DNA of 64,000 nt from Actinomycetales bacterium mxb001 (GCA_004379115.1 NBNH01000320.1:278-64277), one strand, 5' to 3'. Numbered from the stretch's first letter, positions 4,024-27,142 are shown. The notes: a model not told the origin generated them from the sequence alone. Numbers and translations are program-made.

Positions 4024-4032
4024 CCTTTCATC

Positions 4033-7954: not shown

Positions 7955-9387
7955 CGCGCGACCTGGACGCGCTGACCTCCTCCTCATCCGATTGGGCCGG
8001 GCTCCGCGTCACGGTGGCGGGCATTGGCATCGCCGGCTTCGCCGCCGCTGATGCGCTGCTGTCGGTAGGCGCCGAGGTCACCGTGCTCGATGCCAGCGAC
8101 GACGACAAGCGCCGGGAGAAGGCCGCCGTGCTCGAGACCCTGGGGGCGAGCGTGCGGCTGGGGTATCCCGGCTCAGCGGATGACGAAGCCGACGTGCTGG
8201 TCGTGTCGCCGGGTATCCGACCGCGCGATCCCGTCATCGTCAGTGCCCTCGACCGCGGTATCGCCGTGTGGGGCGAGCTCGAGGTGGCCTGGCGGCTGCG
8301 CTTCGCGGATCAACCGGCCCCGTGGCTGTGCGTGACGGGCACCAATGGCAAGACCACGACGACGCTCATGCTCGACTCCATGCTGCGCGCCGCCGGGCTC
8401 GCATCGACGGCGGCGGGCAATGTGGGGTTCTCCCTGATCGACGCCGTACGCGATCGCTCGCTGCAGGTGATCGCCACCGAGGTCAGCGCCACGCAGATGC
8501 CCTTCGTCACGTCGATGAGCCCGGAGTCGGCCGCCTGCCTCAATCTCGCACCGGATCATCTCGACTACTTCTCCACCATGGAGGAGTACGGCCGCACCAA
8601 GGCCCTCGTCTACCGACACGCTCGCGTGGCCGCCGTCTACAACGTCGACGACCCCGTCACCGAGCAGATGGTGCGGGATGCCGACGTGATCGAGGGATGC
8701 CGCGCCGTGGGATTCACGCTGTCGGTGCCGTCCGTCTCGATGCTGGGGGTCGTCGACGACGCCCTGGTCGACCGGGCCTTCATCGACGATCGACGTACCC
8801 ATGCCCAGGAGCTCGCGACGGTGGAGGACGTACCAGGGCGCAGTCCCGCCAATGTCGCCAACGCCCTGGCCGCCGCGGCACTCGCGCGATCCTTCGGCGT
8901 CGCCCCGTCAGCCGTGCGAGAGGGGCTGCAGGGCTTCACGCCCGCACCGCATCGCGTCGCGCGCGTTGCCGATCACGGCGACGTGATCTTCATCGATGAC
9001 TCGAAGGCCACTAACACCCATGCTGCCCAGATGTCCCTGCGCGCCTTCGACTCGGTGGTGTGGATCGCCGGCGGCCAGGCCAAGGGCCAGTCGTTCGACG
9101 ATCTTGTACGCGTCGTCGCACCTCGCCTGCGCGGAGTCGTGCTGCTGGGCGTCGATCGCGGGGTGATCCGCGATGCGCTCGCCCGCCACGCCCCGGGCGT
9201 GGCGATCGCCGAGGTCGACCGCACCGACCCCGATGCGATGGTCGAGGTGGTGGCACTGGCCGCGGGCCTGGCCCGACCGGGCGATGCGGTCCTGCTCGCC
9301 CCGGGCTGCGCCAGTTGGGACATGTTCCGTGACTATGCCGACCGAGGCGACCGTTTCGCCGCGGCGGCCCGGGCCCTGGGGGAGTAG
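7951..9387 (+). CDS. murD: UDP-N-acetylmuramoylalanine--D-glutamate ligase
   Basis: ATG at 7951 (MTRDLDAL...) lies in the frame of the long 6880-9387 ORF. It has the Rossmann motif VAGIGIAGFA and the P-loop VTGTNGKTTT. ATGA overlap with mraY. Confidence 0.93.
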   Translation: MTRDLDALTSSSSDWAGLRVTVAGIGIAGFAAADALLSVGAEVTVLDASDDDKRREKAAVLETLGASVRLGYPGSADDEADVLVVSPGIRPRDPVIVSALDRGIAVWGELEVAWRLRFADQPAPWLCVTGTNGKTTTTLMLDSMLRAAGLASTAAGNVGFSLIDAVRDRSLQVIATEVSATQMPFVTSMSPESAACLNLAPDHLDYFSTMEEYGRTKALVYRHARVAAVYNVDDPVTEQMVRDADVIEGCRAVGFTLSVPSVSMLGVVDDALVDRAFIDDRRTHAQELATVEDVPGRSPANVANALAAAALARSFGVAPSAVREGLQGFTPAPHRVARVADHGDVIFIDDSKATNTHAAQMSLRAFDSVVWIAGGQAKGQSFDDLVRVVAPRLRGVVLLGVDRGVIRDALARHAPGVAIAEVDRTDPDAMVEVVALAAGLARPGDAVLLAPGCASWDMFRDYADRGDRFAAAARALGE

Positions 9388-9470
9388 CCCCGCCAGTCAC
9401 AGACGCCCCAGAACGCGACACGCGCCCCGATGTCACGGTTCCACCCCACCTGCACCGGAAGACTGTCCCC

Positions 9471-10679
9471 ATGGATCGCGTCACGCGCCATCCGATGGTG
9501 CTGTACTACCTGCTCCTCGGCGCGGCCCTCGCCCTGCTCCTCCTCGGCCTGCTCATGGTCCTGAGCTCGTCCTCGGTGCTGTCGATTCGCCAGTTCGGCT
9601 CGCCCTACACCCTCGCCCAGCGTCAGGGTCTCTTCGCGGTCATCGGCGTCGTGCTCATGCTGGTGGCCACGCGCATCCCCATCGGCTGGTGGCGTCGACT
9701 TGCCTGGCCCGCGCTCATCCTCGCCTTCGGACTGCTCTTCGCCGTGCTGATCGTCGGCGTCGAAGTCTCAGGGCAGCGCAACTGGATCGACATCGTCGGG
9801 CCGTTCCGACTTCAGCCCTCCGAGTTCGCCAAGCTCGCGATCATCCTGTGGTCCGCTGACCTGCTCACTCGTAAGCAGGCGACGATCAACCGCTGGTCGC
9901 ACCTGCTCATCCCCCTGCTACCCGTCACCGCTCTGATGCTGCTGCTCGTTCTCATGGAAGGCGACGTCGGCAACACGCTGTTGCTCGCCCTCATCGTCGG
10001 CGGCGTGCTGTTCGCTGCGGGCGCGCCGCTGAGGCTCTTCGCCGTGCTCGGTGGCCTGGGAATCCTGGCGATCGCGGCGCTCACCCTGGCCGCTCCCTAT
10101 CGCATGAGCCGATTCACCTCGTGGCTCGATCCCAGCGCCGATCGACTGGGCGACGGGTGGCAGGTCACGCAGGGCCAGTACGCGCTGGGAACCGGCGGAT
10201 GGTGGGGGGTGGGACTCGGCGCGAGCCGTGAGAAGTGGGGGTCGCTGCCCGAGGCCCACACCGACTTCATCTTCCCCGTGATCGGCGAGGAACTCGGTCT
10301 CATCGGCACGTTGACGGTCCTGATGCTCTTTGGCGTCGTTGCCTTCGTTGCGTTCCGCATCGTGCAGTCGGCCACCGACACCTTCATGCGACTGGCTGCC
10401 GCAGGTATCGGCACGTGGATCATCGTGCAGGCCGTGGTCAACATCGGCGCCGTCCTGAGCCTGCTTCCCATCACCGGCGTGCCGCTTCCCCTCGTGTCCT
10501 ATGGCGGCTCGTCGCTGATACCGCTGCTCATCGCGATCGGCATCCTGCTGTCCTTCGCGCGCGCACTCGGAGGACCTCGGGACGCTGCCCTGGAAGCGGT
10601 GGACACCGAGGATTCCGTGCCGGCGCGTACGCCGACTCGGAGGAAGGGGGCCGGCCGCACGCCCCAGGGGGTGGCGTGA
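9471..10679 (+). CDS. ftsW: SEDS-family peptidoglycan glycosyltransferase FtsW
   Basis: 402 aa, roughly 10 TM helices, SEDS motifs (QPSEFAKLAIILW, LPEAHTDFIF, PLPLVSYGGSS). Standard dcw position. Confidence 0.93.
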   Translation: MDRVTRHPMVLYYLLLGAALALLLLGLLMVLSSSSVLSIRQFGSPYTLAQRQGLFAVIGVVLMLVATRIPIGWWRRLAWPALILAFGLLFAVLIVGVEVSGQRNWIDIVGPFRLQPSEFAKLAIILWSADLLTRKQATINRWSHLLIPLLPVTALMLLLVLMEGDVGNTLLLALIVGGVLFAAGAPLRLFAVLGGLGILAIAALTLAAPYRMSRFTSWLDPSADRLGDGWQVTQGQYALGTGGWWGVGLGASREKWGSLPEAHTDFIFPVIGEELGLIGTLTVLMLFGVVAFVAFRIVQSATDTFMRLAAAGIGTWIIVQAVVNIGAVLSLLPITGVPLPLVSYGGSSLIPLLIAIGILLSFARALGGPRDAALEAVDTEDSVPARTPTRRKGAGRTPQGVA

Positions 10680-11785
10680 AGGTCCTGCTCGCTGCCGGGG
10701 GAACCGCCGGCCACATCGTTCCGGCGCTCACCCTCGCCGACACGCTCATGCGCGACGACCCGCACACTGAGGTCGTGGTCGTAGGGCGAGAAGACGGTCT
10801 GGAGAGCCGGCTCGTCCCCGCGCGCGGCTACCGGCTGCGCACCGTCCCGGCCGTTCCCCTGCCGCGCAAACCCTCGAAGGACCTCGCGCTGGTGCCCGTG
10901 CGTGTCTCCGGCTCGGTGCGGCAGATGATGGCGATCCTGCGCGAGGAGGATCCCGACGTGGTGGTCGGCTTCGGTGGCTACGTTGCCCTGCCGGCCTATC
11001 TCGCCGCCCGTCGCGCGGGAATCCCGCTCGTCATTCACGAGGCCAACAGCCGCGCGGGCGTCGCCAATCGCGTGGGTGCGCGACTCACCGGTTGGGTGGC
11101 GGAGAACGTGACGTCGAGCCTGCCGCGCGCGACACGAGTGGGGATGCCCCTGCGTCCGGAGATCGTCGCGCTCGCCGAGACCGACGACCGCTCTCTCATG
11201 CGGCGACAGGCACGTGATCACTTCGGCCTGGCGGCCGACAGGCCCACGCTGCTGGTCTTCGGTGGGTCCCTGGGCGCCCAGCACCTCAACGAGATCGTCA
11301 CCGCTGCGGCAGACGAGTTCGCCGCCGCCGGCGTGCAGGTCCTGCATGTCGTGGGGGAGAAGGGAGCCGGTGTTCGCGACATCGCACCGCGCGGCCCATC
11401 GCAGCCCGCCTACGTGGTGATTCCCTATGTCGACCGCATGGACCTCGCCTTCGCGGCGGCCGACCTTGTCGTGAGTCGAGCCGGTGCGATGACCTGCGCC
11501 GAACTGGCGGCCCTCGGCATCCCGGCGGTCTACGTGCCGCTGCCCATCGGCAATGGCGAGCAACGACTCAACGCCCAGCCCGTGGTCAACTCCGGTGGTG
11601 GCCTCATCGTCGACGATGCAGACTTCACGACCACGACCATCCGCGAGACCGTGATCCCGCTCGCGCTCAATCAAGGGCTCTTGGAGCGCATGGGTGAAGC
11701 TGCCCGTGCCCACGGCGTACGCGATGGAGATCGACGACTGGCTGATCTGGTTCGGGCGGCTTCGGCGGCCGGAGGACGCGGATGA
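10676..11785 (+). CDS. murG: UDP-N-acetylglucosamine--N-acetylmuramyl-(pentapeptide) pyrophosphoryl-undecaprenol GlcNAc transferase
   Basis: GTG at 10676 overlaps the ftsW stop. The sequence begins VKVLLAAGGTAGHIVPAL and also contains FGGSLGA and the conserved GNGEQRLNA region. Confidence 0.93.
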   Translation: MKVLLAAGGTAGHIVPALTLADTLMRDDPHTEVVVVGREDGLESRLVPARGYRLRTVPAVPLPRKPSKDLALVPVRVSGSVRQMMAILREEDPDVVVGFGGYVALPAYLAARRAGIPLVIHEANSRAGVANRVGARLTGWVAENVTSSLPRATRVGMPLRPEIVALAETDDRSLMRRQARDHFGLAADRPTLLVFGGSLGAQHLNEIVTAAADEFAAAGVQVLHVVGEKGAGVRDIAPRGPSQPAYVVIPYVDRMDLAFAAADLVVSRAGAMTCAELAALGIPAVYVPLPIGNGEQRLNAQPVVNSGGGLIVDDADFTTTTIRETVIPLALNQGLLERMGEAARAHGVRDGDRRLADLVRAASAAGGRG

Positions 11786-13191
11786 CGCGCCTGATCGATA
11801 CCGGACGCGTGCACCTGGTCGGGGTGGGCGGCGCAGGCATGTCCGGGCTTGCGCGCGTCATGCTCGCTCAGGGCGTGCCCGTGTCCGGCACCGATGCGAA
11901 GGAGTCCCGACGGCTTGCCGCCCTGCGCGCGCTCGGTGCGACGATCAGCGTGGGCCACACGACCGAGGCCCTCGATGCAGCGCCCGAGTCGCTCGCTGTC
12001 GTGGTCGCGTCCACGGCGATTCCCCCCACCAACCCCGAGGTGGTCGAGGCCCGTCGACGCGGCATCCCCGTCTGGACGCGGGCCGAGGCACTCAACGCGA
12101 TCATGGAGGGCTCCACGCCCATCGCGATCGCGGGCACGCACGGCAAGACCACGACCACCTCGATGGTGACGGTGGCCTTGCAGGCGTGCGGTATCGACCC
12201 GTCCTTCGCGATCGGCAGCGAGCTGCAGTCGTCGGGAACTAACGCGCACTTCGGATCAGGCGACTACTTCGTCGTCGAGGCTGATGAATCCGATGGTTCG
12301 TTCCTGCAGATGACGCCCCTCGTGGGAGTCGTGACCAATGTCGAGGCCGACCATCTCGATCACTGGGAGCGATACGAGGACATCGAGGATGCCTTCGTCC
12401 GGTTCTGCCTTTCGACGAGGGAGCGCCAGGGCTTCGTCATCTCATGCGCGGACGACCCTGGGGCTCGTCGAGTGACCGAGAGGGCTCGAGCCGAAGGAGT
12501 CCGCGTCATCACCTACGGCGAGGCCAGCGACGCGGACTTTCGCATCGCGCGATCGGCGGCCGACCCTGCCGGATGGTCCTTCGACGTCGTGCACCACGGC
12601 GTACGCATGGGCCGGATGACCCTGCGTGTCCCCGGTCGGCACAACGCGCTCAATGCCACCGCCGCCCTGGCCGTGGGCGCGAGCCTCGATCTGCCCGTCT
12701 CCGAACTCCTCGAGGGACTGGAGTCCTTCACAGGCACGCAGCGGCGCTTCGAATTGCGAGGCCAGGTCGGCAATGTCCGCGTGTACGACGACTATGCGCA
12801 CCACCCCACCGAGGTGAGTGCCACGCTGACCGCTGCGCGTGAGGTCGCCGGTGCGGGCCGCGTGGTGGTCGCCTTCCAAAGCCATCGCTATTCGCGCACG
12901 TCCGTCTTCGCTCGCGAGTTCGGCCAGGCGCTGGGCCTGGCCGACGAGGTCATCGTGCTCGAGGTGTACAGCGCGGGCGAGAAGGCGATCCCGGGGGCGA
13001 GTGGCTCGGTCATTGCGGCGGCTGTTCCGCTGCCGCGCGAACGCGTGATCTTCCAGCCATCGTGGGCGATGGTCCCCGAGACCGTCGTGGAGCGTGTCCG
13101 GCCCGGCGATGTCGTCATGACGATGGGCGCGGGCGATGTCGGGATGCTGGCCCCGCAGATCGTCGACCTGCTGCGCGAGCGCCTAGCGTGA
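11782..13191 (+). CDS. murC: UDP-N-acetylmuramate--L-alanine ligase
   Basis: 469 aa with VHLVGVGGAGMSGLA and GTHGKTTTTSM. ATGA overlap with murG. Confidence 0.95.
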   Translation: MTRLIDTGRVHLVGVGGAGMSGLARVMLAQGVPVSGTDAKESRRLAALRALGATISVGHTTEALDAAPESLAVVVASTAIPPTNPEVVEARRRGIPVWTRAEALNAIMEGSTPIAIAGTHGKTTTTSMVTVALQACGIDPSFAIGSELQSSGTNAHFGSGDYFVVEADESDGSFLQMTPLVGVVTNVEADHLDHWERYEDIEDAFVRFCLSTRERQGFVISCADDPGARRVTERARAEGVRVITYGEASDADFRIARSAADPAGWSFDVVHHGVRMGRMTLRVPGRHNALNATAALAVGASLDLPVSELLEGLESFTGTQRRFELRGQVGNVRVYDDYAHHPTEVSATLTAAREVAGAGRVVVAFQSHRYSRTSVFAREFGQALGLADEVIVLEVYSAGEKAIPGASGSVIAAAVPLPRERVIFQPSWAMVPETVVERVRPGDVVMTMGAGDVGMLAPQIVDLLRERLA

Positions 13192-13898
13192 AGCGCGCAC
13201 TGTGGGCCCTCGCGGTCATCGTGCCCGTCCTCGCCGTGGTCGCATGGATCGGCTGGTTCTCGCCCTGGTTCTCCCTCGACACCGTCGAGGTCCGCATCGC
13301 CTCGGCCTCCGCGGCGGCCGGACCCCTGACGTCGCAGGAGGTCGAGGCCGTCGTGCAGGTCCCCGCGGGCACGCCCATGTTGCGCATATCCCCGTCGGAG
13401 GTCGAGGAACGCGTGGCGGCGCTCCCGCAGGTTGCCTCGGTCACGGTCACCCGCGAATGGCCCACCACCCTCATCGTCGATGTGCAGCGTCGAGTGCCGG
13501 TGGCTGCTGTTCCCGTCGTCACGGGCGGCTACGACATCGTCGATGCCACCGGAGCCGTCATCCGACAGTCACCGACGCCCGTCGACGGCGTGCCCATGGT
13601 GCAGGCAACCGGAGCGGGACTCGAGGCAGCCATCGCGGTCGTCCGCGATATGCCCGACTGGCTGCGCGACAAGGTTGAGGGGATCGAGGCGACGACGCGC
13701 AATGACGTCACTCTGCTGCTGCGGAACGGCTCGATCGTCACCTGGGGATCGGCCGAGGAGAACGCGTTCAAGGCCGAGGTGCTGCAGGTCCTGCTGAAGG
13801 TCAAGGCGCTTCGCTATGACGTCTCGGCTCCAGGAACTCCCGCGACGTCGGACAACATCAGCCGACCCACGGCCTTTCCCAGCCCATCGGCGCCGTAG
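13188..13898 (+). CDS. ftsQ: Cell division protein FtsQ (POTRA plus FtsQ domain)
   Basis: GTG at 13188 overlaps the murC stop (GTGA). One TM helix is followed by a POTRA-like segment (VEVRIASA...LRISPSEVEERVAALPQVASVTVTREWPTTLIV). Last gene of the dcw string. Confidence 0.85.
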   Translation: MKRALWALAVIVPVLAVVAWIGWFSPWFSLDTVEVRIASASAAAGPLTSQEVEAVVQVPAGTPMLRISPSEVEERVAALPQVASVTVTREWPTTLIVDVQRRVPVAAVPVVTGGYDIVDATGAVIRQSPTPVDGVPMVQATGAGLEAAIAVVRDMPDWLRDKVEGIEATTRNDVTLLLRNGSIVTWGSAEENAFKAEVLQVLLKVKALRYDVSAPGTPATSDNISRPTAFPSPSAP

Positions 13899-13909
13899 GC
13901 GCATCGGCC

Positions 13910-15043
13910 CTACTGCTTGATGACAAAGTCCCCGGCGTCATTGACGGTGAGGATGAACATCGGCGCCTGACGGCGGTTGCCCGATTCGGGGTTGATGGAG
14001 ATGGTGCCGGTGGCGCCCTTGAGGCCCTTGGTGGCCAGCACTGCTGCCGTGAGTTGGGCGAAGCGGGTCGTGCCCGCTCGCTCCATGGCGTCGAAGAGCA
14101 GCAGGGCCGAATCGTAGGTGAAACTGCCCCAGACATCGGGCTGCTTGCCGAAGGCAGCCTTGTATTGCGCCACGTAGGTCTCGGCGCCGGGGAACTGGCC
14201 GGCGGCCGGCACGCCGGAGTACGTGCACGACTGCGCGATGCCCACGCCGACCTCGGAAACGAAGGCATTGTCGACGTTGGCGAGGTTCATGAAGCACTTC
14301 GCCGTGGTGTTGGCGGCGGCCAGCGCTTGGGCGATCTTGGTCCCCTCCGGGTAGTAGGTGCTGGAGTAGACGACGTCGGGGTCCAGTGCGAGGGCCTCTG
14401 CGACCGCGTCGTCGTAACTGGAGGCTGTTGGGTCGAGCATGATCTGCACGACGTCGATTCCCCGCTTCTCCAGGCCCTTGCCGGTCTGGTTGGCGACGGT
14501 CGTGGTGTAAGAGGAGGGATCGACCAGCATGACCACGCGATTCTTGGCGATGCTCGCGAGGTAGGGGATCTCCACGGGAGAGGTCTGCGACACCATGGGC
14601 TGAGTCGTGGCGCCGAACCCCTCGGTCGCGGTGGCCGACGTCATGCGCAGGGGCACGATGCCCGCCTCCAGGTAGGCGCTGAGGTTGATCACGCCCACGG
14701 AGGAGTTGTACGGGCCGATGATGGCGATGGCCCGGGCGGCCACGGCCTTGTCGACGGAGGCAAGCGCGTAGTCGGCATCGGCACGATCGTCGATGCGGAC
14801 GATCTGCACCGGGCGGCCCAGGACGCCGCCGCGGGCGTTCTGCTGTGCGACCGCGAGCTTGACACCGCGCAGCATGTCCTTGCCGTTCGACGACTGTGAT
14901 CCGGTCAGCGGTGCCTCGACCGCGATGACAATGGGATCCACGGACCCGGCGGGGGCGCCTCCCGCGGGGGATGCCACGGTGAAACTGCCCACCATCAGGG
15001 CAGGGGCGGCAAGGGCGAGGGCGACGACAGAGCGCGGGGCCAT
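13910..15043 (-). CDS. Secreted type-1 periplasmic-binding-fold solute-binding protein (Leu/Ile/Val-binding family), with no cognate permease nearby
   Basis: ATG at 15043 is preceded by GAAGGAG. It has a signal peptide MAPRSVVALALAAPALMVG. Sequence features are IAVEAPLTGSQSSNGKDMLRGVKLAVAQQNARGGVLGRPV and IIGPYNSSV. The ORF-track start at 15082 is probably too far upstream. Confidence 0.75.
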   Translation of the reverse strand: MAPRSVVALALAAPALMVGSFTVASPAGGAPAGSVDPIVIAVEAPLTGSQSSNGKDMLRGVKLAVAQQNARGGVLGRPVQIVRIDDRADADYALASVDKAVAARAIAIIGPYNSSVGVINLSAYLEAGIVPLRMTSATATEGFGATTQPMVSQTSPVEIPYLASIAKNRVVMLVDPSSYTTTVANQTGKGLEKRGIDVVQIMLDPTASSYDDAVAEALALDPDVVYSSTYYPEGTKIAQALAAANTTAKCFMNLANVDNAFVSEVGVGIAQSCTYSGVPAAGQFPGAETYVAQYKAAFGKQPDVWGSFTYDSALLLFDAMERAGTTRFAQLTAAVLATKGLKGATGTISINPESGNRRQAPMFILTVNDAGDFVIKQ

Positions 15044-15108
15044 GGGACTCCTTCGGTTGGAGCGCGAGAGTAGCGCGTCCACCGAGAGTCAGGGGTTACA
15101 GTGCCCGC

Positions 15109-18012
15109 GTGAAGACATCCCGCTGGATCACGCCCGCCGCCCTCCTCTCTATCGTCGCCGCCCTGCTAGTGGCCCCGCCTTTGAGTAGTGCCGCCGAGCC
15201 GGTCACCACTGCGGCGGCCAGCGACCAGCGACCGGTGCTGCCGGAGCCGCCGCGCTATGCCAGCGTCAATGGCGAGCTTCACCTCAAGGTCACCGCTACC
15301 AAGGTGACCGGCCGTATCGGCAACGTGACATACAAGGACCTGTTGACCTACAAGACCGAACTCGTCGATGGGAAGGGCAGCTACACCCCCGGCACTACCT
15401 CGCCCTACATCGGGCCGACGTGGGTCGTCCAGCGTGGTGACCGCGTCGTCATCGATTACATCAATGACCTACCCAAGTACACCTTCATGCCGGTGCAGGA
15501 TGCCGACGCTGAGCGCGTCCCGAGCTACCCGGTGCCGCAGCCTCTGAGCCTGCACTTCCACGGCCTGGAACTGTGGCCTTCGGGCAACAGCGACAACGTC
15601 CTGCTCTCGATCCCCCCGGGCCGCAGTAACCGTTACGAGATCACCATCTCCGACAAGCAGGCGGAAGGCTTGTACTGGCTTCACCCGCATATCCACGGCC
15701 TGGCTGACGCCCAGATCTACAACGGACTTGCGGGGTTCCTCATCGTCGGTCGCTCGGATGGCAACTACGCGGAGTTCGACGATCTGGTCAAGCATGAGAT
15801 GGCGCTGCGCTACAACGTCGTGAGCCCACAGGGCTACACCGGCGAGCTCGTCGATGCTCCGGCGACCGACACGTTCGGCACGGCCATGGCGCCTCGCGGC
15901 GACATGATCTACACGGTCAATGGAGCCCTCAACCCGCGAGTGCGACTGAACTCGGCCGATCCTGCCAAGGGGCTGCCCGCCGAGAGCCAAGTGTGGGCGA
16001 TGTCGAACATCACCGGCAGCGCGACCTACATCATCGCCCTCGACGAAGTGGATGCGAAGGACTATGACGACACCACCGTCAAGGGCACTCCGCTCGACCT
16101 GGTGATCGTGTCCATCGACGGTGACTCGATGCCCAAGCCCATCGTCCTCACGGGTGAGGCTGCTGAGCGTGGCTACCTGGTTCCCCAGGGGGGCCGTGTC
16201 GCCGTCCTCGTCCAGGGTGCCTCCGCGCCCGGCAAGGTCGTGCGGCTCTTGCAGGTGCAAAATCGCAGCGGCACCGGCATGAAGAGTGCCTACGACTGGA
16301 CCGATCAGAGTTACATCGGCGGCTGGCGTGACTACACGCAGGATGTGTTCCTGAGCTCCTACAGCGACTACTCCGTGACGACAAAGCACGTGCCGACCCC
16401 CTCGACACTGACGCCCAACTACGACACGGGCGACCTTGACCTGAGCAAGCAACCGGTTGCGCAGAAGCGCACGTTCATCTTCAACAACGTTTCCGAGCCG
16501 TCCAAGGAGACGCCCAACAACTTCGGCGTCGACTTCAAGCTCTACCCCGATGGGTCGATCGCTCAGCCGCGTATCGGGACGGTAGAGGAGTGGACGATCT
16601 ACAACTACTCGCCCCTGCTTCATCCCTTCCACGCACACGTGCAAGACGCCCAGGTCATGGAAGTCGTCTCACCGGTGAATCCGGACTACGTCAACCCGGA
16701 GGATGAATACCTGCCGACGCAATACGTCACCGATATGAACCAGCCGACGCCTTCGGCGTTCCAGCAGGACGTCATCAACATCCCGCCGGCCCGGGTGGAC
16801 AACGCGGACGAGGGGATGCCCGTCCTCAACGGAGACGGCCTCCCGGCACAGCCGGGCAAGATCGTGCTGCGCGTGCGGATCAATGACTTCCTGGGGTGGT
16901 ACGTCGAGCACTGCCATCGCCTGCCGCATGAGGACCGCGGCATGATGACAGTGATCCGATCTATCCCCACCGACCCGCTCGTGGCAACCGTGAGTCAGGG
17001 CTCCTCCGCGGTAGTGACGGCCTTCTCGTCCCTCACCGGGGATCCGGTCATGGAGGTCACGCCGTTCCCCGGCCAGCGCGATGTCAGCGTGGCCGTGGGC
17101 GACGTCAACGCTGATGCCAAGCCGGACGTGGTGACGGTAGGAGTCGTCAACGGCAAGGCGGTCGTGAAGGCGTACTCGAATGCGCAGGAATCATCGGTGC
17201 GCACCCTGGGCAGGTACTCCGGTCTCGGCGACGCGCCGTCCATTGCGCTCACCGATATCGACGGTGATCATCGCGACGATCTCGTGCTGGGTGCCGGCCC
17301 CGGTGTTGCCCCCAAGGTCATCGTGGCCTCCGGTGGAAGCGGCCGGGTTTATGGGTCATTCCTCGCCTACGACCGCGCATTCCGCGGCGGGGTGAACGTG
17401 GCAGGCGGCATGTTGGAGGAAGGCGGCCGCAACTCCATCGTCACGGGCTCGGCCGCGGGGATGCGCGCCACCGTGGCCATCTTCAACAACGACCTCTTCG
17501 GTGACGCCAAGGGCAATCCCGCCTCGGCCCAGCAGGTCGGCACCTTCAAGAAGGTCGCGTCGTACCGCATCGGTGCCAAGAGCTACCGGGGTGGCGTCGA
17601 TGTTGCCGTGGGTACGCCGCGTGCGGCCCTGGGCGGCCTCGGCCAGATCGTCGCGACGACGTCCGATGCTGGGCGCCTGGAGATCTTGTCGGTGGGCGGG
17701 GCGCACGAGGCGCAGATGCACAAGCTCGGCTTCCACGAAATGGTCTCGCAGACGGGAGTGCACCTTGCCCTTCCGTATCGCGCCTTCGTCCAGCGCACCG
17801 TCACCATGGCCCTGCGCCTGTCCATGGGCCAGTGGGGATACGGCTCAGGTGCCGGGGTCGGGGTCGTCAGCACCCCGACGGGCGCGCGCATGGTCCTGGC
17901 CCCCGCCAAGGGTGATGGGGTCGTCAAGGCCATCACGCTGGGACCCAATGGCACGAGCATCGCGTCCGTCGACGTCATCCAGCAGGACGGGGGCCGACCG
18001 GCCGGGATGTAG
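15109..18012 (+). CDS. Secreted three-domain multicopper oxidase fused to a C-terminal FG-GAP/VCBS-type repeat (beta-propeller-like) region
   Basis: 967 aa with a hydrophobic signal peptide. All four MCO copper motifs are present: HFHG, WLHPHIHG, HPFHAH and HCHRLPHEDRGM. The last ~330 aa carry FG-GAP-like repeats (VGDVNADAKPDVVTVG, LTDIDGDHRDDLVLGAGPG, and others). Confidence 0.85.
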   Translation: MKTSRWITPAALLSIVAALLVAPPLSSAAEPVTTAAASDQRPVLPEPPRYASVNGELHLKVTATKVTGRIGNVTYKDLLTYKTELVDGKGSYTPGTTSPYIGPTWVVQRGDRVVIDYINDLPKYTFMPVQDADAERVPSYPVPQPLSLHFHGLELWPSGNSDNVLLSIPPGRSNRYEITISDKQAEGLYWLHPHIHGLADAQIYNGLAGFLIVGRSDGNYAEFDDLVKHEMALRYNVVSPQGYTGELVDAPATDTFGTAMAPRGDMIYTVNGALNPRVRLNSADPAKGLPAESQVWAMSNITGSATYIIALDEVDAKDYDDTTVKGTPLDLVIVSIDGDSMPKPIVLTGEAAERGYLVPQGGRVAVLVQGASAPGKVVRLLQVQNRSGTGMKSAYDWTDQSYIGGWRDYTQDVFLSSYSDYSVTTKHVPTPSTLTPNYDTGDLDLSKQPVAQKRTFIFNNVSEPSKETPNNFGVDFKLYPDGSIAQPRIGTVEEWTIYNYSPLLHPFHAHVQDAQVMEVVSPVNPDYVNPEDEYLPTQYVTDMNQPTPSAFQQDVINIPPARVDNADEGMPVLNGDGLPAQPGKIVLRVRINDFLGWYVEHCHRLPHEDRGMMTVIRSIPTDPLVATVSQGSSAVVTAFSSLTGDPVMEVTPFPGQRDVSVAVGDVNADAKPDVVTVGVVNGKAVVKAYSNAQESSVRTLGRYSGLGDAPSIALTDIDGDHRDDLVLGAGPGVAPKVIVASGGSGRVYGSFLAYDRAFRGGVNVAGGMLEEGGRNSIVTGSAAGMRATVAIFNNDLFGDAKGNPASAQQVGTFKKVASYRIGAKSYRGGVDVAVGTPRAALGGLGQIVATTSDAGRLEILSVGGAHEAQMHKLGFHEMVSQTGVHLALPYRAFVQRTVTMALRLSMGQWGYGSGAGVGVVSTPTGARMVLAPAKGDGVVKAITLGPNGTSIASVDVIQQDGGRPAGM

Positions 18013-18030
18013 GGGTGCCGCGCGGAGCGC

Positions 18031-18810
18031 CTAGTGCTTGAGGGCGCTGGGTTCCTCGACGTGGGTCAGATGCCCGTCGAGGATCTCGAAGACCCGGTCG
18101 GTGTATTCGACCATCCGCAGGTCGTGCGTCACCATGATGCCGGTCTTGCCGCGGTCCTTGATCTCGCGGCGCAGCAGCTGGACGACCTGGCGGCCGAGGG
18201 CCGTGTCGAGAGCGGCCGTCGGCTCGTCGACGAGCACGAGGTCGGGATCGTTCATGAGCGCGCGGCCGATCGCCACCCGCTGACGTTCGCCGCCGGAGAG
18301 CTGCTCCGGGAGGTTCTTTGCCCGGTCCGCCAGGCCGAGTTCCTCGAGGAGTTGATCAGCGCGCTGCTGGGCGGCCTTCTTCGGTGTCTTGACCAGCGTG
18401 GCGACGTAGAGCAGGTTCTCGCGTGCGGTGAGGAAGGGCACGAGGTTGGCGGACTGGAACACGAACCCGACGCGCTCGGCGCGAAAGCGCGTGAGCTCGC
18501 GACGGCTGAGGGCGGTCACATCGACATCGCCGATGCGCACGGTGCCGGATGTCGCGGAGAGCAGGCCGCCGATGATCGAGATCAGGGTGGTCTTGCCCGA
18601 TCCCGACGGTCCGAGCAGTGCCACGAACTCGCCCTGGTCGACGGCCATGGTGGCATCGTCGAGTGCGGTCACCGCGGTGTGGCCCGACCCGTAGACCTTG
18701 CTCACGTGATCGACGTGCAGCAGGGCACCTGGACGCGTGGGCGCATCGGCACTCGGAGCGGGACCGGGGCCGTCGGGCACGGGGCTGGTGGCGTCGATGG
18801 GGTCATTCAT
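18031..18810 (-). CDS. ABC transporter ATP-binding protein, MacB/LolD/FtsE-like
   Basis: 259 aa with Walker A GPSGSGKTT, signature LSGGERQR and Walker B LVLVDEPT. ATGA overlap with the upstream permease. Confidence 0.92.
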   Translation of the reverse strand: MNDPIDATSPVPDGPGPAPSADAPTRPGALLHVDHVSKVYGSGHTAVTALDDATMAVDQGEFVALLGPSGSGKTTLISIIGGLLSATSGTVRIGDVDVTALSRRELTRFRAERVGFVFQSANLVPFLTARENLLYVATLVKTPKKAAQQRADQLLEELGLADRAKNLPEQLSGGERQRVAIGRALMNDPDLVLVDEPTAALDTALGRQVVQLLRREIKDRGKTGIMVTHDLRMVEYTDRVFEILDGHLTHVEEPSALKH

Positions 18811-19928
18811 AGCGTGCCTCCGATGGCGGTGGCCGGATCGATCCGGGCGATGCGTCGCAGGGAGAAGGCGGCGCCGACCACGCCTGCGACCAGGGTGAAG
18901 ACGGCGATCTGGATGAGCGTGTCGGTGCGGAAGAGCGTCGGCACATTGGCCGGGATGATGAGGCCGAACAGTCGAGCCACGATCGTGCCGATGATGACGC
19001 CGAGGATCGACGCCACGACGGCCTGAACCAGGACCGCGCGGCCGAGCGCGCCCGTGGGCGTGCCCAAAGCCTTGAGAGCCGCGAAGAGCTCGCGCTTCTC
19101 CAGGACCACCAGCGCGAAGAACAGCGCCACGACCAGTGCGGCGACGGCGAGGGTCGTGTAGATGATCGAGTTGAGGGTGGAGCGCTGCTGTGCCACGCCG
19201 GGGATCGCGAGACCGACAGCATCGCTCGTGAGCACGGTCGTTCCCGGCAGGGTGGCGGCGATCGCCGACAGGTCGGCCCCGGGCTCGGTGATGAGTGCGA
19301 CCGCATTGATGGCGGTTGGCTGACCACGCAGCTCCGGCCGCACGGCGTCACGCATCGCGCGCCAGTCGGCGACGCTTGTCCAGACCGTGGGCTGCAGCTG
19401 ATAGGACGCGTCCGACACGAAGCCGACGACCTCGACCCCCACGTCGCCGACGGCAACCTGCGACCCGAGGACCACGCCGTCCTGCTGGAGGCGGGTGTCG
19501 ACGGCGGCCACGCCCTGCTCACCGGCCTCGGGAAGGCGGCCCTCGACGAGCGTGGTCGGCGAGCCGGGTCCGCCGACGTCGAGGCCGAAGACGGCAAGGT
19601 CGATGTCGCCCTCGGGACCCTTGCCCCCGGTCAGCAGCACGCCCACGGGACTGGCCGCCGTCACGCCGGGAGCCGAGCGGAGTGGGGCGACGTCCGCCTC
19701 GTCGAGACGTGAGCGGATCAAGGAGCCCTCGGCATCGTCGGAGAAGGCATAGGCCGTGGCGTTGGTCGATCGAACCGCTCCGGTGGCCCCGTAGAACAGG
19801 CCGTCAGCGAGGGCGCCGAGGACCAGCACCAGGAAGACGATGAGCGAGAGAGCGGCGACGACCGCTCCGAAGCGACCCTTGCTGCGCGCGAGTTCGCCGC
19901 GGGAGAGCAGGCGAGCGGGGCCGGCCAT
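18807..19928 (-). CDS. FtsX/MacB-type ABC permease, subunit 2 (4 TM with a large extracytoplasmic loop)
   Basis: ATG at 19928 (MAGPARLLSRGELARSKGRFG...). The layout is TM1, a ~220 aa loop, three C-terminal TM helices, and the terminal RRIARIDPATAIGG motif. The 973-aa ORF in the track is read-through of this frame. Confidence 0.85.
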   Translation of the reverse strand: MAGPARLLSRGELARSKGRFGAVVAALSLIVFLVLVLGALADGLFYGATGAVRSTNATAYAFSDDAEGSLIRSRLDEADVAPLRSAPGVTAASPVGVLLTGGKGPEGDIDLAVFGLDVGGPGSPTTLVEGRLPEAGEQGVAAVDTRLQQDGVVLGSQVAVGDVGVEVVGFVSDASYQLQPTVWTSVADWRAMRDAVRPELRGQPTAINAVALITEPGADLSAIAATLPGTTVLTSDAVGLAIPGVAQQRSTLNSIIYTTLAVAALVVALFFALVVLEKRELFAALKALGTPTGALGRAVLVQAVVASILGVIIGTIVARLFGLIIPANVPTLFRTDTLIQIAVFTLVAGVVGAAFSLRRIARIDPATAIGGTL

Positions 19929-21025
19929 CAGCGCGCTCCTACGGCGGAGGCCGGGTCGATCCGCGCGATGCGGCGGATGCTGAGGAGTCCGGCCAGCAGG
20001 GAGAAGATCCACACGGCGAGGATCGTCGTGAGGATGAGTTGCGGATCCAACTGCACGGGAATGCCGGTGTTGAGACCGCGTACGGCGAGGAGGGTGAGGC
20101 CCAGCGCGATCGCGGATGCCAGCCACACCACGATCGTGATCTGGATGGCGACGGTGGCCGCCAAGCGGCCGGTGCCGGTGCCGATGGCGCGCAGCAGCGT
20201 GAACGGCTTGAGCTTTTGCACGGTGAGGATGAGGAAGAAGAAGCCGATGACGACGATGCCGATGATGAAGGTCAGTCCGACGAGGATGCCGAAGCTCTGC
20301 GTGATCGATTCGATGCCGGGGATGAGCGCGACCGCGTCGTCGCGCGTATAGCCCTTGACCCCGGGCACGTCGCTGGTGATCGCACTGGCCACCGTGGCGA
20401 CGTCGGCGTCGGGCTGCACCGCGAACGCCACGGCATTGATGGGAACGAAGGGAAGTCCCGGGTTGGTGGCGGCAGCAGCCTCGACGTAGGTGTCGAGATC
20501 GACGTACATGGTTGGGATCGCATTGAACTGCGCGCCGCGCAAGAGCCCGACGACCGTCAGGTCGGTGCCCGCCGGGTCGAGTGTGATCGTGTCGCCGATC
20601 GCGACGTCGCCGCCGTCGACCGCTGCCTCGCCGGGCGCGCTGGGCAGTCGGCCATCGGACAGGCCACTGGGCGAGCCGGGTCCGTCGGGCTCGAATCCGA
20701 AGACCTGGACGTCGACCTGCTGACCCGCGATGTCCGCGGCCGTGGTGAAGGTGCCAACCGCTGCTGCGTTGGCCACGCCGGGCACGGCGGCCACCGCGTC
20801 GACGACCGACGGCTCCATCCGGCTCGCGGCAATGTTGTCGCGGGCGAAGTCGGCGTAGACCAGTCCATCGGTGCGCAGGCCCTGCAGCGCGCCCACTAGG
20901 GCGCCGATCAACGCGCCCGAGAGGGTGGACAGGAGAAGGACGAGGAAGACAAGGAGAGAGACAGCACCGGTGAGGAGGCCGAAGCGCAGCTTCGCGCGCT
21001 TGATCTCCGTGCCTGCCAGGCTCAC
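19928..21025 (-). CDS. FtsX/MacB-type ABC permease, subunit 1 (paralog of the downstream permease)
   Basis: GTG at 21025 lies 7 nt after GGAGGAA. The sequence begins VSLAGTEIKRAKLRFG, has the same 4-TM architecture, and ends RRIARIDPASAVGAR. ATGA overlap with subunit 2. Confidence 0.85.
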   Translation of the reverse strand: MSLAGTEIKRAKLRFGLLTGAVSLLVFLVLLLSTLSGALIGALVGALQGLRTDGLVYADFARDNIAASRMEPSVVDAVAAVPGVANAAAVGTFTTAADIAGQQVDVQVFGFEPDGPGSPSGLSDGRLPSAPGEAAVDGGDVAIGDTITLDPAGTDLTVVGLLRGAQFNAIPTMYVDLDTYVEAAAATNPGLPFVPINAVAFAVQPDADVATVASAITSDVPGVKGYTRDDAVALIPGIESITQSFGILVGLTFIIGIVVIGFFFLILTVQKLKPFTLLRAIGTGTGRLAATVAIQITIVVWLASAIALGLTLLAVRGLNTGIPVQLDPQLILTTILAVWIFSLLAGLLSIRRIARIDPASAVGAR

Positions 21026-21128
21026 GCCAGTTCCTCCCGAGAGTGGCGACCCCGCCCTCGCGGGCGAGCACCTCAGACTCTCGCGAGTCGCCGCGTCGCG
21101 CATCCGGAAGCGGTGGCACAGTACCCGC

Positions 21129-21893
21129 GTGGCCGTCCACCTGGAGTTCGGTGTGCCGGGTGCCCGCGACGCTCGCGTGCGCACCACGTGGATGGCCGGC
21201 ACCCAGCCCGTGGTCGGCTGGGCCTGGGTGCAGCACGGCTTCGCCCGCCGCGGACGTCACCTGGAGGGCCTGGCCGGGGCGCTGGCCACCGCGGGCATCA
21301 GCAGCGTTCGACCCGACATCGCCTCGCTCGTGCCGCGCCACTCGATGCATGATCCGGCGTTCCTCACGGCCTCGGCGCTGACGATCGCGCGGGCGATCGA
21401 GTCGGGAATCCCCCAGAGCAGGGGAGTCGACCTCGGTCCCTCCTGGGTGGGGGTCGGCCACTCGGCCGGGGCCGCCGTCGTGACCCACGTCGCGGGCGTC
21501 CTGGCCGCGCGGCCGGACGGTCCGGGATCGCCCCGCGGCCTGGTGCTGCTCGACCCCGTCGACACCGTCGGCGGACTCCTGCGCGCGGCACTCCCGGGGC
21601 TGCCCGACGACCTGCCGATCATCGCCCTCGCCCTGCCGCCCTCGCGGTGCAACCGCGGCGGCGAGACCGTCGCCTGGCTCGGGCGTACCGGCCGCGTCGA
21701 GATCGTGGCCCTGTCCGATCTGTCGCACGCCGATCCCGAGCGCATCCCGGCATCGCTGCTGCCCGCCGACGTCGTCCCGGCGGGCCGATCCGCGCGCTGG
21801 GCGTGCGGGCCGGCTGGGTCGGCCGACCGAGTCGCGGCCCTGGGGGAGGTGGCGGTCGCGCAGGTCCGAAGGCTGCTCGCAGACGACGGGTGA
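21129..21893 (+). CDS. Alpha/beta-fold hydrolase (GHSAG nucleophile elbow), no signal peptide
   Basis: Motifs are VGVGHSAGAAVV (Ser elbow), LLDPVD (Asp candidate) and LSHADPE (His candidate). The start is uncertain: GTG 21129 or ATG 21192. The ORF-track start at 20871 would overlap the divergent permease. Confidence 0.65.
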   Translation: MAVHLEFGVPGARDARVRTTWMAGTQPVVGWAWVQHGFARRGRHLEGLAGALATAGISSVRPDIASLVPRHSMHDPAFLTASALTIARAIESGIPQSRGVDLGPSWVGVGHSAGAAVVTHVAGVLAARPDGPGSPRGLVLLDPVDTVGGLLRAALPGLPDDLPIIALALPPSRCNRGGETVAWLGRTGRVEIVALSDLSHADPERIPASLLPADVVPAGRSARWACGPAGSADRVAALGEVAVAQVRRLLADDG

Positions 21894-21936
21894 TTCGCAC
21901 GAAGAAATCTGTGACGGATGTGACGCAGGTGGCGTC

Positions 21937-21965
21937 TTGCCATATGTGAGGTTGACCTCTAACCT
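21937..21965 (+). promoter_or_regulatory. Candidate housekeeping-type promoter for ftsZ
   Basis: TTGCCA (21937-21942), a 17-nt spacer, then TAACCT (21960-21965, fits TANNNT). It lies inside a locally AT-richer ~160 bp gap upstream of ftsZ. Confidence 0.35.
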
Positions 21966-22017
21966 CGTGGCAGTTCCACCCGAACAAGAAATCTCAACCT
22001 TAACGTGAGGTCGAGAT

Positions 22018-22036
22018 CTGCGCTCGCCGAGCGCAG
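22018..22036 (+). promoter_or_regulatory. Perfect 8-bp stem / 3-nt loop hairpin in the putative ftsZ 5' UTR
   Basis: CTGCGCTC gcc GAGCGCAG. It ends 6 nt before the AGGAGGA ribosome-binding site of ftsZ. Confidence 0.4.
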
Positions 22037-22054
22037 CGGCCTAGGAGGACGCTC

Positions 22055-23239
22055 ATGGGCCGGACGCGAAGGGATGCAGCCGTGGCCGCACCACAGAACT
22101 ACCTCGCCGTCATCAAGGTCGTCGGTATCGGCGGCGGCGGTGTCAATGCCGTCAACCGCATGATCGACGTCGGCCTCAAGGGGGTCGAGTTCGTCGCCAT
22201 CAACACCGACGCCCAGGCGCTGCTCATGAGCGATGCCGACGTCAAGCTCGACATCGGTCGCGAGCTCACCCGCGGTCTTGGCGCGGGTGCCGATCCCGAG
22301 GTGGGCCGACAGGCCGCCGAGGATCACGCGGCCGACATCGAGGAGGTGCTGCGCGGAGCCGACATGGTGTTCGTCACCGCGGGCGAGGGTGGTGGCACCG
22401 GCACCGGGGGAGCCCCGGTCGTCGCGCGCATCGCCAAGTCGCTGGGTGCCCTCACCATCGGCGTCGTCACCCGTCCGTTCGGGTTCGAAGGACGCCGTCG
22501 CCAGTCGCAGGCCGACTCCGGCGTCGATGCTCTGCGGGCCGAGGTCGACACCCTCATCGTCATTCCCAACGACCGCCTGCTGTCGCTGTCCGACCGCAAC
22601 ATCAGCGTCATCGATGCCTTCCGCCAGGCCGACCACGTACTCCTCCAGGGCGTCTCGGGCATCACCGACCTCATCACCACGCCGGGCCTGATCAACCTCG
22701 ACTTCGCCGACGTCAAGAGCGTCATGGCGGGAGCCGGCTCGGCCCTCATGGGTATCGGGTCTGCCCGCGGCGAGGAGCGCGCGGTGGAGGCGGCCAATGC
22801 CGCCATCTCCAGCCCGCTGCTCGAGGCGAGCATCGAAGGCGCCCACGGCGTGCTGCTGTCGATCTCCGGCGGGTCCGACCTCGGCCTGTTCGAGATCAAC
22901 GAGGCCGCCCGCATGGTGTCCGATGCCGCTCATCCCGACGCCAACATCATCTTCGGCGCCGTCATCGACGACACCCTCGGCGACGAGGTGCGCGTGACGG
23001 TCATCGCCGCTGGCTTCGACGGTGGTACGCCGCCCGCGCGACGTACTCAGCCGGTGACCAAGCGCATCGCCGAGGAGACGCCTCTCGCGGCTGCTGTGGC
23101 CGCGAAGCAGTCCGCGTCCTCCGACAGCGCCGAGATCCCGGTGACCCCGGAGCCGCCGAAGCGTCCGGTGCAGCAGCCGCGCACCATCGTCTTCGACGAT
23201 GCCGGCGACGACCTGGACGTGCCCGACTTCCTGAAGTAG
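22055..23239 (+). CDS. ftsZ: Cell division GTPase FtsZ
   Basis: 394 aa with [22 protein letters not shown] and [13 protein letters not shown] (tubulin signature), plus the C-terminal [10 protein letters not shown] peptide. An AGGAGGA RBS is present. Confidence 0.97.
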
Positions 23240-26415: not shown

Positions 26416-27132
26416 CTAGCCCAGCGGACCCACCTCGAAGCCGGCCAGCACGCTCTCCGGCTCGGCCTGCCCGCCGTGCATGCCGGTGAAGGCCTGCGTC
26501 GCGTCGATCCCGCACATGCCCGTGATGACGTCGGGGCCGCCCGGATGCTCGCTGATCCAGGCGGTGAGGTCATAGACGACGCCGTTGACGACGCTCCAGC
26601 AGTCGTCGGGGGAGGAATGCTGCGCGACGTCGGCCATGGTGAGACCGGTGCCGGGCGCAGCAGGTGAGGCGTCCGCTGTCGGGGCCGCCGCGGGCGCGAC
26701 GCGGCTTGCCCAGACGGCCTCGGCGCCGCTGTGCCCGACGATGGTGGTCACGACGATGGTGCCCACGGCAAGAAAGATGCCGATGACGCCCACGATGGTG
26801 ACACCGACGCCACTGGCTCGTCGCTGCCAGAGGTACCACCCGAGCGCGACGACGAAGAGGGCGATGGACACGGGCAGGAGTCGGTCGCCCCACTCGGCGT
26901 GCTCCTGAGGTAGCCCGACGCGGGCGGAGAGTTGCTCGCCGGACTCCTTGGCGACGAAGGCGGCAACGACGCCGACGCCGAGGACGCCGATGGTCGCCCA
27001 GCCGAGTGCCCCGCGCCATCGCGGGATGAGCACGATGGCGATCAGGCCGAGGCCACCGAGGATGAGCAGGACGATCGCGAAGTGCACGACGAGGGGGTGG
27101 ACCGGCAGTCCGAGCACCAGGTCGAAGGGCAT
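26416..27132 (-). CDS. Membrane protein: N-terminal 4-TM DUF2231-like domain fused to a C-terminal cytochrome b5-like heme-binding domain
   Basis: ATG at 27132 (MPFDLVLGLPVHPLVVHF...). After four TM helices and a Pro/Ala linker the sequence reads CWSVVNGVVYDLTAWISEHPGGPDVITGMCGIDATQAFTGMHGG, which contains the HPGG motif and a second His. Confidence 0.7.
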   Translation of the reverse strand: MPFDLVLGLPVHPLVVHFAIVLLILGGLGLIAIVLIPRWRGALGWATIGVLGVGVVAAFVAKESGEQLSARVGLPQEHAEWGDRLLPVSIALFVVALGWYLWQRRASGVGVTIVGVIGIFLAVGTIVVTTIVGHSGAEAVWASRVAPAAAPTADASPAAPGTGLTMADVAQHSSPDDCWSVVNGVVYDLTAWISEHPGGPDVITGMCGIDATQAFTGMHGGQAEPESVLAGFEVGPLG

Positions 27133-27142
27133 GTCCCTAGCC

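Follow-up and report, generated by a model that had tools for sequence, protein, structure and literature searches.

In the division and cell wall (dcw) gene cluster of Actinomycetota, ftsQ is usually followed at once by ftsZ. Here, we describe a 64,000-nucleotide stretch of DNA from Actinomycetales bacterium mxb001 (the window, meaning this stretch at its full length) in which the two genes are separated by 8,156 bp carrying six genes in mixed orientation: one for a LivJ-type solute-binding protein, one for a multicopper oxidase with FG-GAP repeats, three for an ATP-binding cassette (ABC) exporter and one for an alpha/beta-fold hydrolase. The split is old and vertically inherited within a lineage made up of mxb001 and relatives source-named Candidatus Nanopelagicales. 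A literature search found nothing relevant on mxb001, on Nanopelagicales together with ftsZ, or on multicopper oxidases together with FG-GAP repeats. Several questions are raised by the locus. What do the six genes encode? How did they come to lie there? Do they take part in cell division? We consider it likely that the junction is a stable patchwork of genes that was put together stepwise, and that it is neither a functional module nor a mobile island.

The interrupted junction

By Pfam, the upstream flank shows the canonical dcw order from mraW (474-1421) through ftsI, murF, mraY, ftsW and murG to murC (11782-13191) and ftsQ; the scan of the flanks skipped 4023-5511 and 7954-9471, which are the places of murE and murD in relatives. 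This block ends with ftsQ (13188..13898, plus strand; 236 amino acids, POTRA_1 and FtsQ_DivIB_C domains), the true start of which is the GTG at 13188, giving a 4-nt overlap with the murC stop codon. A gene of the ftsQ kind, also of 236 amino acids, is called in the related contig L083. On the other side of the gap, ftsZ (22055-23239, plus strand; 394 amino acids, Tubulin and FtsZ_C domains) is followed in order by pgeF/yfiH, ylmE, sepF, yggT and divIVA. An ftsQ end at 13898, an ftsZ start at 22055 and six genes between them had been noted in an earlier reading of the window made without knowledge of its origin (the sequence-only reading), and all three were confirmed by open reading frame (ORF) and Pfam analysis, so that ftsQ does not lie directly upstream of ftsZ. 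The coordinates of the gap genes agree exactly with the deposited proteins of the metagenome-assembled genome (MAG) Actinomycetales bacterium mxb001, in which B7C55_10540 to B7C55_10560 are labeled only as "hypothetical protein". An assembly artefact as the cause of the split is ruled out, because the same gap layout recurs in independent assemblies (L083-L086, L090, L001 and L175). FtsZ itself is 95-96% identical to that of the window in L001 (95%), L175 and L171 (96%), and an exact look-up of the window's FtsZ matched 2-kb contigs only.

How rare is a break at this position? We surveyed one genome per species, in which a scan for FtsZ gave 80 loci, and ftsQ was located upstream in 75 of them. 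The distance between the two genes has a median of 260 bp and is 400 bp or less in 68 of these 75 other actinobacterial species, so that adjacency is the usual state, as the sequence-only reading had said of well-studied Actinomycetota. More than 700 bp separate the genes in six of the 75, mostly with identifiable genes in the interval. Two transposases occupy the gap at one surveyed locus (L023:6800-9600), AhpD-like and YjbR-like genes at another (L044:8240-9365), and a PAS-GGDEF protein (L067:3393-4415), an Asp/Glu-racemase-like gene (L006:9077-9808) and a small membrane protein (L047:9161-9607) at three more. Since these six other species also carry more than 700 bp there, the ftsQ-ftsZ junction is a recurrent insertion point. 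The largest gap among the 75 species is 3.2 kb, and the window's, at 8.2 kb and six genes, is the largest seen. In Flexivirga caeni (L035), the 3.6 kb upstream of ftsZ contain no ftsQ.

Fragmentation of the dcw cluster has been documented in various phyla, and ftsQ-ftsZ is among its most persistent pairs, remaining together even in cyanobacteria in which other dcw genes are dispersed (PMC8871954). The window resembles such fragmented clusters in its otherwise canonical order, its single broken junction and its vertical inheritance within a lineage, but differs in that the broken junction is the very pair that is kept in the dispersed cyanobacterial clusters.

None of the usual signs of a genomic island, namely an integrase or transposase, a tRNA target, direct repeats or deviant composition, was found. 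All six gap ORFs were assigned to families other than integrases and transposases, no tRNA gene was found in the window, and no flanking repeats above chance were found at the gap. The third-position GC content of the six genes is 0.84-0.88, which is inside the range of the window; in total GC content, no gene in the window is lower than that of the oxidase (0.65, with a 1-kb minimum of 0.624), owing to codon positions 1 and 2. In these respects the sequence-only reading, which had seen no integrase, transposase, direct repeats or shift in base composition, was right.

The six genes

Pfam matches and gene overlaps confirmed three of the identities given earlier, namely the binding protein, the fusion of a multicopper oxidase with FG-GAP repeats and the coupled permease-permease-ATPase operon. 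The gene nearest to ftsQ, convergent with it across an 11-bp spacer, encodes a LivJ-type binding protein (13910..15043, minus strand; 377 amino acids). Its match to Peripla_BP_6 (E value 6e-39) is near full-length, with residues 50-384 aligned to profile positions 1-342 of 343, and it has a Sec-type signal peptide with an N-terminal hydrophobic segment at residues 6-24. The closest solved relatives are binding proteins for branched-chain and other amino acids (3td9, E value 3e-21). No LivHMGF-type importer genes were found in the gap or in the scanned flanks (about 0.5-40 kb, except the two skipped intervals), and no LivHM-type permease was found among ten genes checked 3′ of divIVA (to about 40.2 kb). 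The protein would probably serve an amino-acid importer encoded elsewhere.

The second gene (B7C55_10540; 15109..18012, plus strand) encodes a secreted, laccase-like multicopper oxidase of 967 amino acids with a signal peptide, Cu-oxidase_3 and Cu-oxidase_2 domains and FG-GAP repeats. The four copper motifs, HxH, HxH, HxxHxH and HCHxxxHxxxxM, are all intact, and H149, H151, H192, H194, H505, H508, H510, H601, C602, H603, H607 and M612 are invariant among 25 homologues. A structural model of the protein, with a predicted local distance difference test (pLDDT) score of 77.7, covers the whole fold of the Thermus thermophilus laccase 2xu9 with its three cupredoxin domains, and this enzyme is the top Foldseek match (target template modeling (TM) score 0.80, E value 9e-26). 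Given the intact motifs and the match to 2xu9, the protein is a genuine laccase-type oxidase of three domains, to which FG-GAP repeats have been added. An FtsP/SufI-like oxidase was also considered and rejected: FtsP is not known to carry copper ligands, all copper ligands of the gap oxidase are intact and invariant, and its match to SufI is weak and generic. The enzyme probably oxidizes phenols or metals outside the cell.

Three-domain bacterial laccases such as the Thermus thermophilus laccase, CueO and CotA have the four copper motifs and the fold in common with the gap oxidase, but the latter has an additional C-terminal FG-GAP repeat domain of about 340 amino acids and belongs to a small family, of which 68 proteins were found in a search of 5.8 billion sequences. 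By source names, this family is spread over distant phyla (Actinomycetota, Solirubrobacterales and Polyangiaceae); its C-terminus, ending in AGM, is conserved, and the final Gly is invariant in the alignment. A metagenome scan with the oxidase alignment, based on generic copper-motif patterns, returned mostly ordinary multicopper oxidases, the useful matches being one in L091 (49% identical) and about seven relatives at 30%. The homologues of L088 and L091, which are 49-52% identical to the gap oxidase, lie away from dcw genes and from any related ABC operon; one of them has just an ABC ATPase gene about 6 kb off, with a product that is 39% identical.

Across an 18-bp spacer, the oxidase gene faces the convergent ATPase gene, with which the ABC operon ends. 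The operon is read on the minus strand in the order permease 1 (19928..21025, 365 amino acids), permease 2 (B7C55_10550; 18807..19928, 373 amino acids) and ATPase (18031..18810, 259 amino acids; ABC_tran, E value 5e-36). The stop codon of permease 1 and the start codon of permease 2 share one base in TGATG, and the stop codon of permease 2 overlaps the ATPase start in ATGA, so that the translational coupling of these genes is real. Hydropathy places the membrane segments of permease 2 at residues 22-40, 258-276, 299-317 and 337-355. Both permeases have the topology of type VII (MacB/FtsX-fold) permeases: four helices, the first two of which flank an outside domain of about 210 amino acids, and an FtsX domain at the C-terminus. 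Both also have homologues with MacB_PCD, and they are paralogues of each other with about 34% identity in a cross-hit. The top NCBIfam matches of the ATPase are DevA, MacB, LolD, YbbA and FtsE (E values 4e-65 to 9e-53, all under the curated equivalog cut-offs), placing it in the DevA/MacB/LolD/FtsE group typical of type VII systems. Searched against NCBIfam, the permeases gave weak matches to YbbP, ADOP and DevC only, and the equivalog models of LolC and LolE, like that of FtsX, matched neither of them at E values up to 0.01. The trio is a self-contained type VII (MacB/HrtBA-fold) exporter consisting of two paralogous permeases and one ATPase. Permease 2 has hundreds of homologues that are 65-92% identical, several of them source-named Candidatus Nanopelagicales.

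What does this exporter carry? The sole solved relative of both permeases is HrtB (7W78), matched over its full length by permease 2 (E value 2e-13) and permease 1 (E value 2e-7). HrtBA of Corynebacterium diphtheriae (PDB 7W78-7W7D; PMC9271180) shares with the gap permeases the four helices, with an outside domain placed between the first two, and, like the gap trio, is a compact type VII system without an adaptor, from a host of the same phylum; it differs in having one permease gene with a dimeric product, whereas the gap operon has two paralogous permease genes. Glu219, the haem ligand in helix 2 of HrtB, aligns with Gln in permease 2 and with Ile in permease 1. In HrtB, the E219Q substitution almost abolishes the haem-dependent activation of the ATPase (PMC9271180). 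Haem export by the trio was rejected because the Glu219 equivalent is missing from both permeases; no gene of a haem-sensing two-component system was seen in the scanned parts of the window. The substrate is thus probably something other than haem, and the pump, by analogy with HrtBA, would probably extract a lipophilic substrate from the membrane's outer leaflet by mechanotransmission.

Two other systems are worth comparing. LolCDE likewise combines two paralogous FtsX-fold permeases and one ATPase in one operon, and the gap ATPase matches LolD with an E value of 5e-56, but its score of 190 is under the curated cut-off of 308; to our knowledge, the host phylum generally has neither an outer membrane nor a Lol pathway. 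In MacB, the ATPase and the permease are fused, in contrast to the separate genes of the gap operon, and no gene for a MacA-type adaptor or an outer-membrane channel was found in the gap or beside the orthologous trios described below.

The last gene (B7C55_10560; 21129..21893, plus strand), divergent from permease 1 across 103 bp and co-directional with ftsZ, encodes an alpha/beta-fold serine hydrolase of 254 amino acids. The protein has no match in Pfam or NCBIfam. H36-G37, G110-H-S-A-G114, D142 and H200 are invariant among 44 homologues, and an AlphaFold model (pLDDT 95.6) finds esterases and lipases as its top matches (probability 1.0, TM scores 0.5-0.64), so that the invariant motifs and the modeled fold bear out the label of alpha/beta hydrolase despite the lack of Pfam support, without pointing to a subfamily. 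Because it has no signal peptide and no membrane or hydrophobic segment, it is cytoplasmic, and it is probably an esterase.

Gap content across lineages

The split was found in at least five further lineages, in which murC is 75-89% identical to that of the window; ftsQ of the split clade is 54-80% identical. The layouts, described here in the orientation of the dcw genes, were obtained from context look-ups with oxidase and permease homologues. In the window, L083-L086 and L090, ftsQ is followed by the binding-protein gene (minus), the oxidase gene (plus), the genes of the ATPase, permease 2 and permease 1 (all minus), the hydrolase gene (plus) and ftsZ, and the oxidase of L083-L086 and L090 is 87-96% identical to that of the window. 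L175 (Candidatus Nanopelagicales, murC 78%) has the oxidase gene (plus) next to ftsQ, then the ABC trio (minus) and the hydrolase gene (plus), and no binding protein. The oxidase gene also follows ftsQ directly in L087 and L089, its product being 66-68% identical to that of the window. L171 (murC 75%) has no oxidase; the ATPase, permease 2, permease 1, hydrolase and binding-protein genes lie between ftsQ and ftsZ in this order, all five co-directional on the minus strand, with the binding-protein gene at the ftsZ end. Among the species representatives of the survey, L001 alone has the layout ATPase-permease-permease-hydrolase-ftsZ. The oxidase and the binding protein are thus variable occupants. 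The ABC trio and the hydrolase were seen in every case in which the sequence covers their part of the gap, and the hydrolase gene adjoins permease 1 in L001, L175 and, inverted, L171.

Additional variation was seen in two contigs. Between the oxidase gene and the ABC operon, L087 (4124-6092) has two extra genes, one for a DUF676 putative esterase and one of the Caroten_synth (PF04240) family; the DUF676 protein was rejected as a relative of the hydrolase, as it has no sequence similarity to it. L172 is apparently the same organism as L171; its ATPase and ftsQ calls are split into short ORFs at 11100-12650, tblastn still recovers both genes, and the broken calls are probably assembly or frameshift errors.

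The occupants differ in their rates of divergence. The ATPase is 86-100% identical in gap-located relatives, and L087 compared with the window gives 95% for the ATPase, 90% for permease 2, 82% for murC and 66% for the oxidase. The ABC proteins are conserved at least as well as murC. Divergence is faster in the oxidase and in the hydrolase, which is 49-64% identical in L001, L171 and L175. The trio is a conserved, native operon in related genomes and is not confined to the gap. It occurs at four different non-dcw sites in related contigs (L173, L174, L176/L177 and L178), with permease 2 65-80% identical to that of the window, and no homologue of the oxidase, the binding protein or the hydrolase lies within 10 kb of these trios. 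In neighbor-joining trees of permease 2 and the ATPase, six gap-located operons form one clade with 100 of 100 bootstraps, which fits a single relocation.

The sequence-only reading saw in the block an old insertion of an extracytoplasmic module and offered, as one idea, an oxidase working with an extruder and a binding protein at the septum or envelope; this view may be put as one ancient horizontal insertion of six genes that function jointly. All but one of the six products are secreted or associated with the membrane, the spacers inside the block are short (11, 65, 18 and 103 bp), the six-gene layout is held in the closest relatives (L083 and L090), and the taxonomically patchy oxidase family fits a horizontal origin, of the oxidase gene alone. 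However, gene content and order vary by lineage, and this largely refutes the idea: L175 lacks the binding protein, L171 lacks the oxidase, and L087 has two extra genes. The hydrolase, without a signal peptide, is cytoplasmic and hardly part of an extracytoplasmic module. Moreover, related genomes carry orthologues of the ABC trio at other sites, linked to it by vertical descent, the oxidase and ABC genes do not co-occur outside the clade, and no type VII exporter is known to employ a LivJ-type binding protein. A joint insertion of this kind is therefore highly improbable. What stands of the claim is that the split is old and its genes are compositionally native; the module does not stand, since the content varies and the trio also lies elsewhere. 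The linkage of the six genes is complete in L083 and L090, but genes of the block were in part also found unlinked in relatives, an outcome that the sequence-only reading had named as telling against it.

A smaller unit may be envisaged, in which the binding protein, the hydrolase and the ABC exporter function together and are near ftsZ only incidentally; in the window's lineage, it would have been split secondarily, when the oxidase gene arrived and local inversions took place. In L171 and L172, these five genes stand head-to-tail on one strand with short spacers; the identities of L171 to the window (71% for the binding protein, 49% for the hydrolase and 75-86% for the ABC proteins) fit orthology, and the hydrolase gene is beside permease 1 in every gap sequenced across. 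On the other hand, L175 is wholly without the binding protein, neither the hydrolase nor the binding protein is found within 10 kb of the trios that lie outside the gap, and the binding protein is best matched by components of amino-acid importers. We regard such a unit as unlikely, and the genes of the gap as likely to act separately from each other.

Thus, we return to the stepwise patchwork. In this scheme, a single move in the subclade's ancestor would have brought the ABC operon, with the hydrolase gene or soon before it, into the gap, to a place upstream of the ftsZ control region, and the remaining genes would have been gained, inverted or lost later, lineage by lineage.

The ftsZ control region and cell division

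How could ftsZ be separated from ftsQ for so long? The 161 bp upstream of ftsZ (21894..22054, plus strand) are AT-richer (GC content 0.565) and include a GGAGGA ribosome-binding site. An alignment of the window, L001, L175, L171 and L081 shows that about 140 bp 5′ of ftsZ are conserved independently of the neighboring gene, which is the co-directional hydrolase gene in the window, L001 and L175 and the divergent binding-protein gene in L171. The ftsZ start codon is ATG in the window and L081, and L001, L175 and L171 have GTG in the same place, all with the GGAGGA ribosome-binding site.

The conserved region includes a candidate box for FtsR, the imperfect palindrome AAATCTCAACCTTAACGTGAGGTCG (21989..22013), 42-66 nt upstream of the ftsZ start. 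In actinobacterial ftsZ promoters, the MerR-type activator FtsR has as its target a 25-bp inverted repeat that lies 41-193 bp from the start codon (PMC6683498). To build a profile for this box, we used the sequences upstream of ftsZ from 79 other species, with the window's clade left out; the profile picks out a strong AACCCTAAC..TGAAGTTTAGGGTT-type box in these training species. Among 127,952 positions of the 64-kb window (mean -48, standard deviation 11.6), the top score, 12.8, falls on 21989-22013, compared with 0.1 for the second-best unrelated site. Across the whole of L001, L171 and L175, the best match likewise falls on the equivalent site. With the FtsR-regulated ftsZ promoters of Corynebacterium glutamicum (FtsR) and Mycobacterium tuberculosis (Rv1828), the candidate shares the 25-bp inverted repeat of the form ...CTCAACC...AGG... 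and its distance, and differs from them in its weak match to the consensus and in its upstream neighbor, which is not ftsQ. Since its absolute score is weak compared with a median of 38 in the training species, we grade the FtsR box as probable, not proven. In L178, at 7084-8681 and about 5 kb from the non-dcw ABC trio, a MerR gene with an Rv1828_C domain (FtsR-like) stands with an FHA-domain gene, suggesting that FtsR is present in this group of organisms.

A second conserved element able to form a hairpin, GAGGTTGACCTCTAACCTC, lies at 21947-21969, about 40 nt upstream of the candidate box. Folded as RNA, the ftsZ leader gives a z score of -3.0, with compensatory changes at a few hairpin pairs across four lineages; a DNA palindrome would give the same pattern of folding and compensation. 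No Rfam family matched in the window. Searches for the leader beyond the clade by strict motif, blastn-short and nhmmer gave nothing convincing, with a weak palindromic match in L002 only, and no sigma-70 consensus promoters were found in the block, as expected at such GC content.

The conserved leader and the top-scoring candidate box indicate that ftsZ has kept its ancestral proximal control region, the simplest explanation being that the other genes came in upstream of it and left it where it was. Judging from the sequence, ftsQ would close one transcription unit, and ftsZ would be transcribed, as it is in other Actinomycetota, from a proximal promoter of its own that is activated by FtsR; the site would tolerate insertions for this reason. 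It had been proposed that the insertion forces ftsZ to use its own promoter. The own promoter is true, but no notable consequence follows, given the conservation of about 140 bp of leader and the candidate FtsR box. With a promoter of its own for ftsZ, division is therefore probably unaffected by the split.

Could the exporter nevertheless work in division? FtsEX is a type VII ABC system that switches on septal cell-wall hydrolases. One may suppose that the ABC complex serves this lineage, possibly in concert with the hydrolase, as an FtsEX-like accessory of the divisome that selection keeps beside ftsZ for co-regulation. It belongs to the same ABC superfamily as FtsEX, and its ATPase matches the FtsE model with an E value of 9e-53; the position in the gap is kept across a clade with ftsQ down to 54-56% identity, the ABC sequences are very strongly conserved, and the ABC operon and the hydrolase gene share the 103-bp divergent region, with the hydrolase gene running into ftsZ. 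However, orthologous trios lie at four unrelated sites in related contigs, the FtsE score of 179 is under the cut-off of 265 and lower than those for DevA, MacB and LolD, and neither permease matches the FtsX equivalog model at E values up to 0.01. The operon also departs from FtsEX in its permease-permease-ATPase order and its two permease genes, it runs against the direction of the dcw genes, it has no linked gene for a cell-wall hydrolase, and ftsZ has its own conserved control region. We hold a divisome accessory to be very unlikely, and the more specific proposal, that the heterodimeric type VII system and the adjoining hydrolase form a previously unrecognized FtsEX-like mechanotransmitter of the divisome in this subclade, to be slightly less credible still. 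Nothing ties the block to cell division except its location.

Several points weigh against the stepwise patchwork favored here. The direction of the relocation, into the gap and not out of it, rests on parsimony and on the choice of the most distant operon as root. The view of L173, L174, L176/L177 and L178 covers the surroundings of their trios and not their ftsQ-ftsZ junctions, and the related contigs are mostly short metagenome fragments. The candidate FtsR box scores far under the training-species median. Finally, the pairing of the ABC operon with the hydrolase gene is kept in every gap sequenced across, and L171 has all five non-oxidase genes in a single co-directional string, so that some functional link among the gap genes is still allowed.

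The stepwise patchwork makes the split an ordinary synteny break of modest interest, a reshuffled neighborhood rather than a new division module. Even so, it shows that the most persistent pair of the dcw cluster can be separated over long evolutionary time, which seems possible through the proximal, probably FtsR-controlled promoter of ftsZ itself, and it cautions that location inside a division cluster does not amount to a role in division. The gap can serve as a synteny marker for one subclade of Candidatus Nanopelagicales relatives, and both the conserved type VII exporter with two different permeases and the rare laccase-FG-GAP family are worth separate study.

The other end of the cluster also varies among these relatives. 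Directly after divIVA, the window (26416-27276, minus strand) and L175 (2846-3568) have a gene for a membrane protein in which DUF2231 is fused with a cytochrome b5-like domain, and L171 has a Gly_transporter-family gene in its place.

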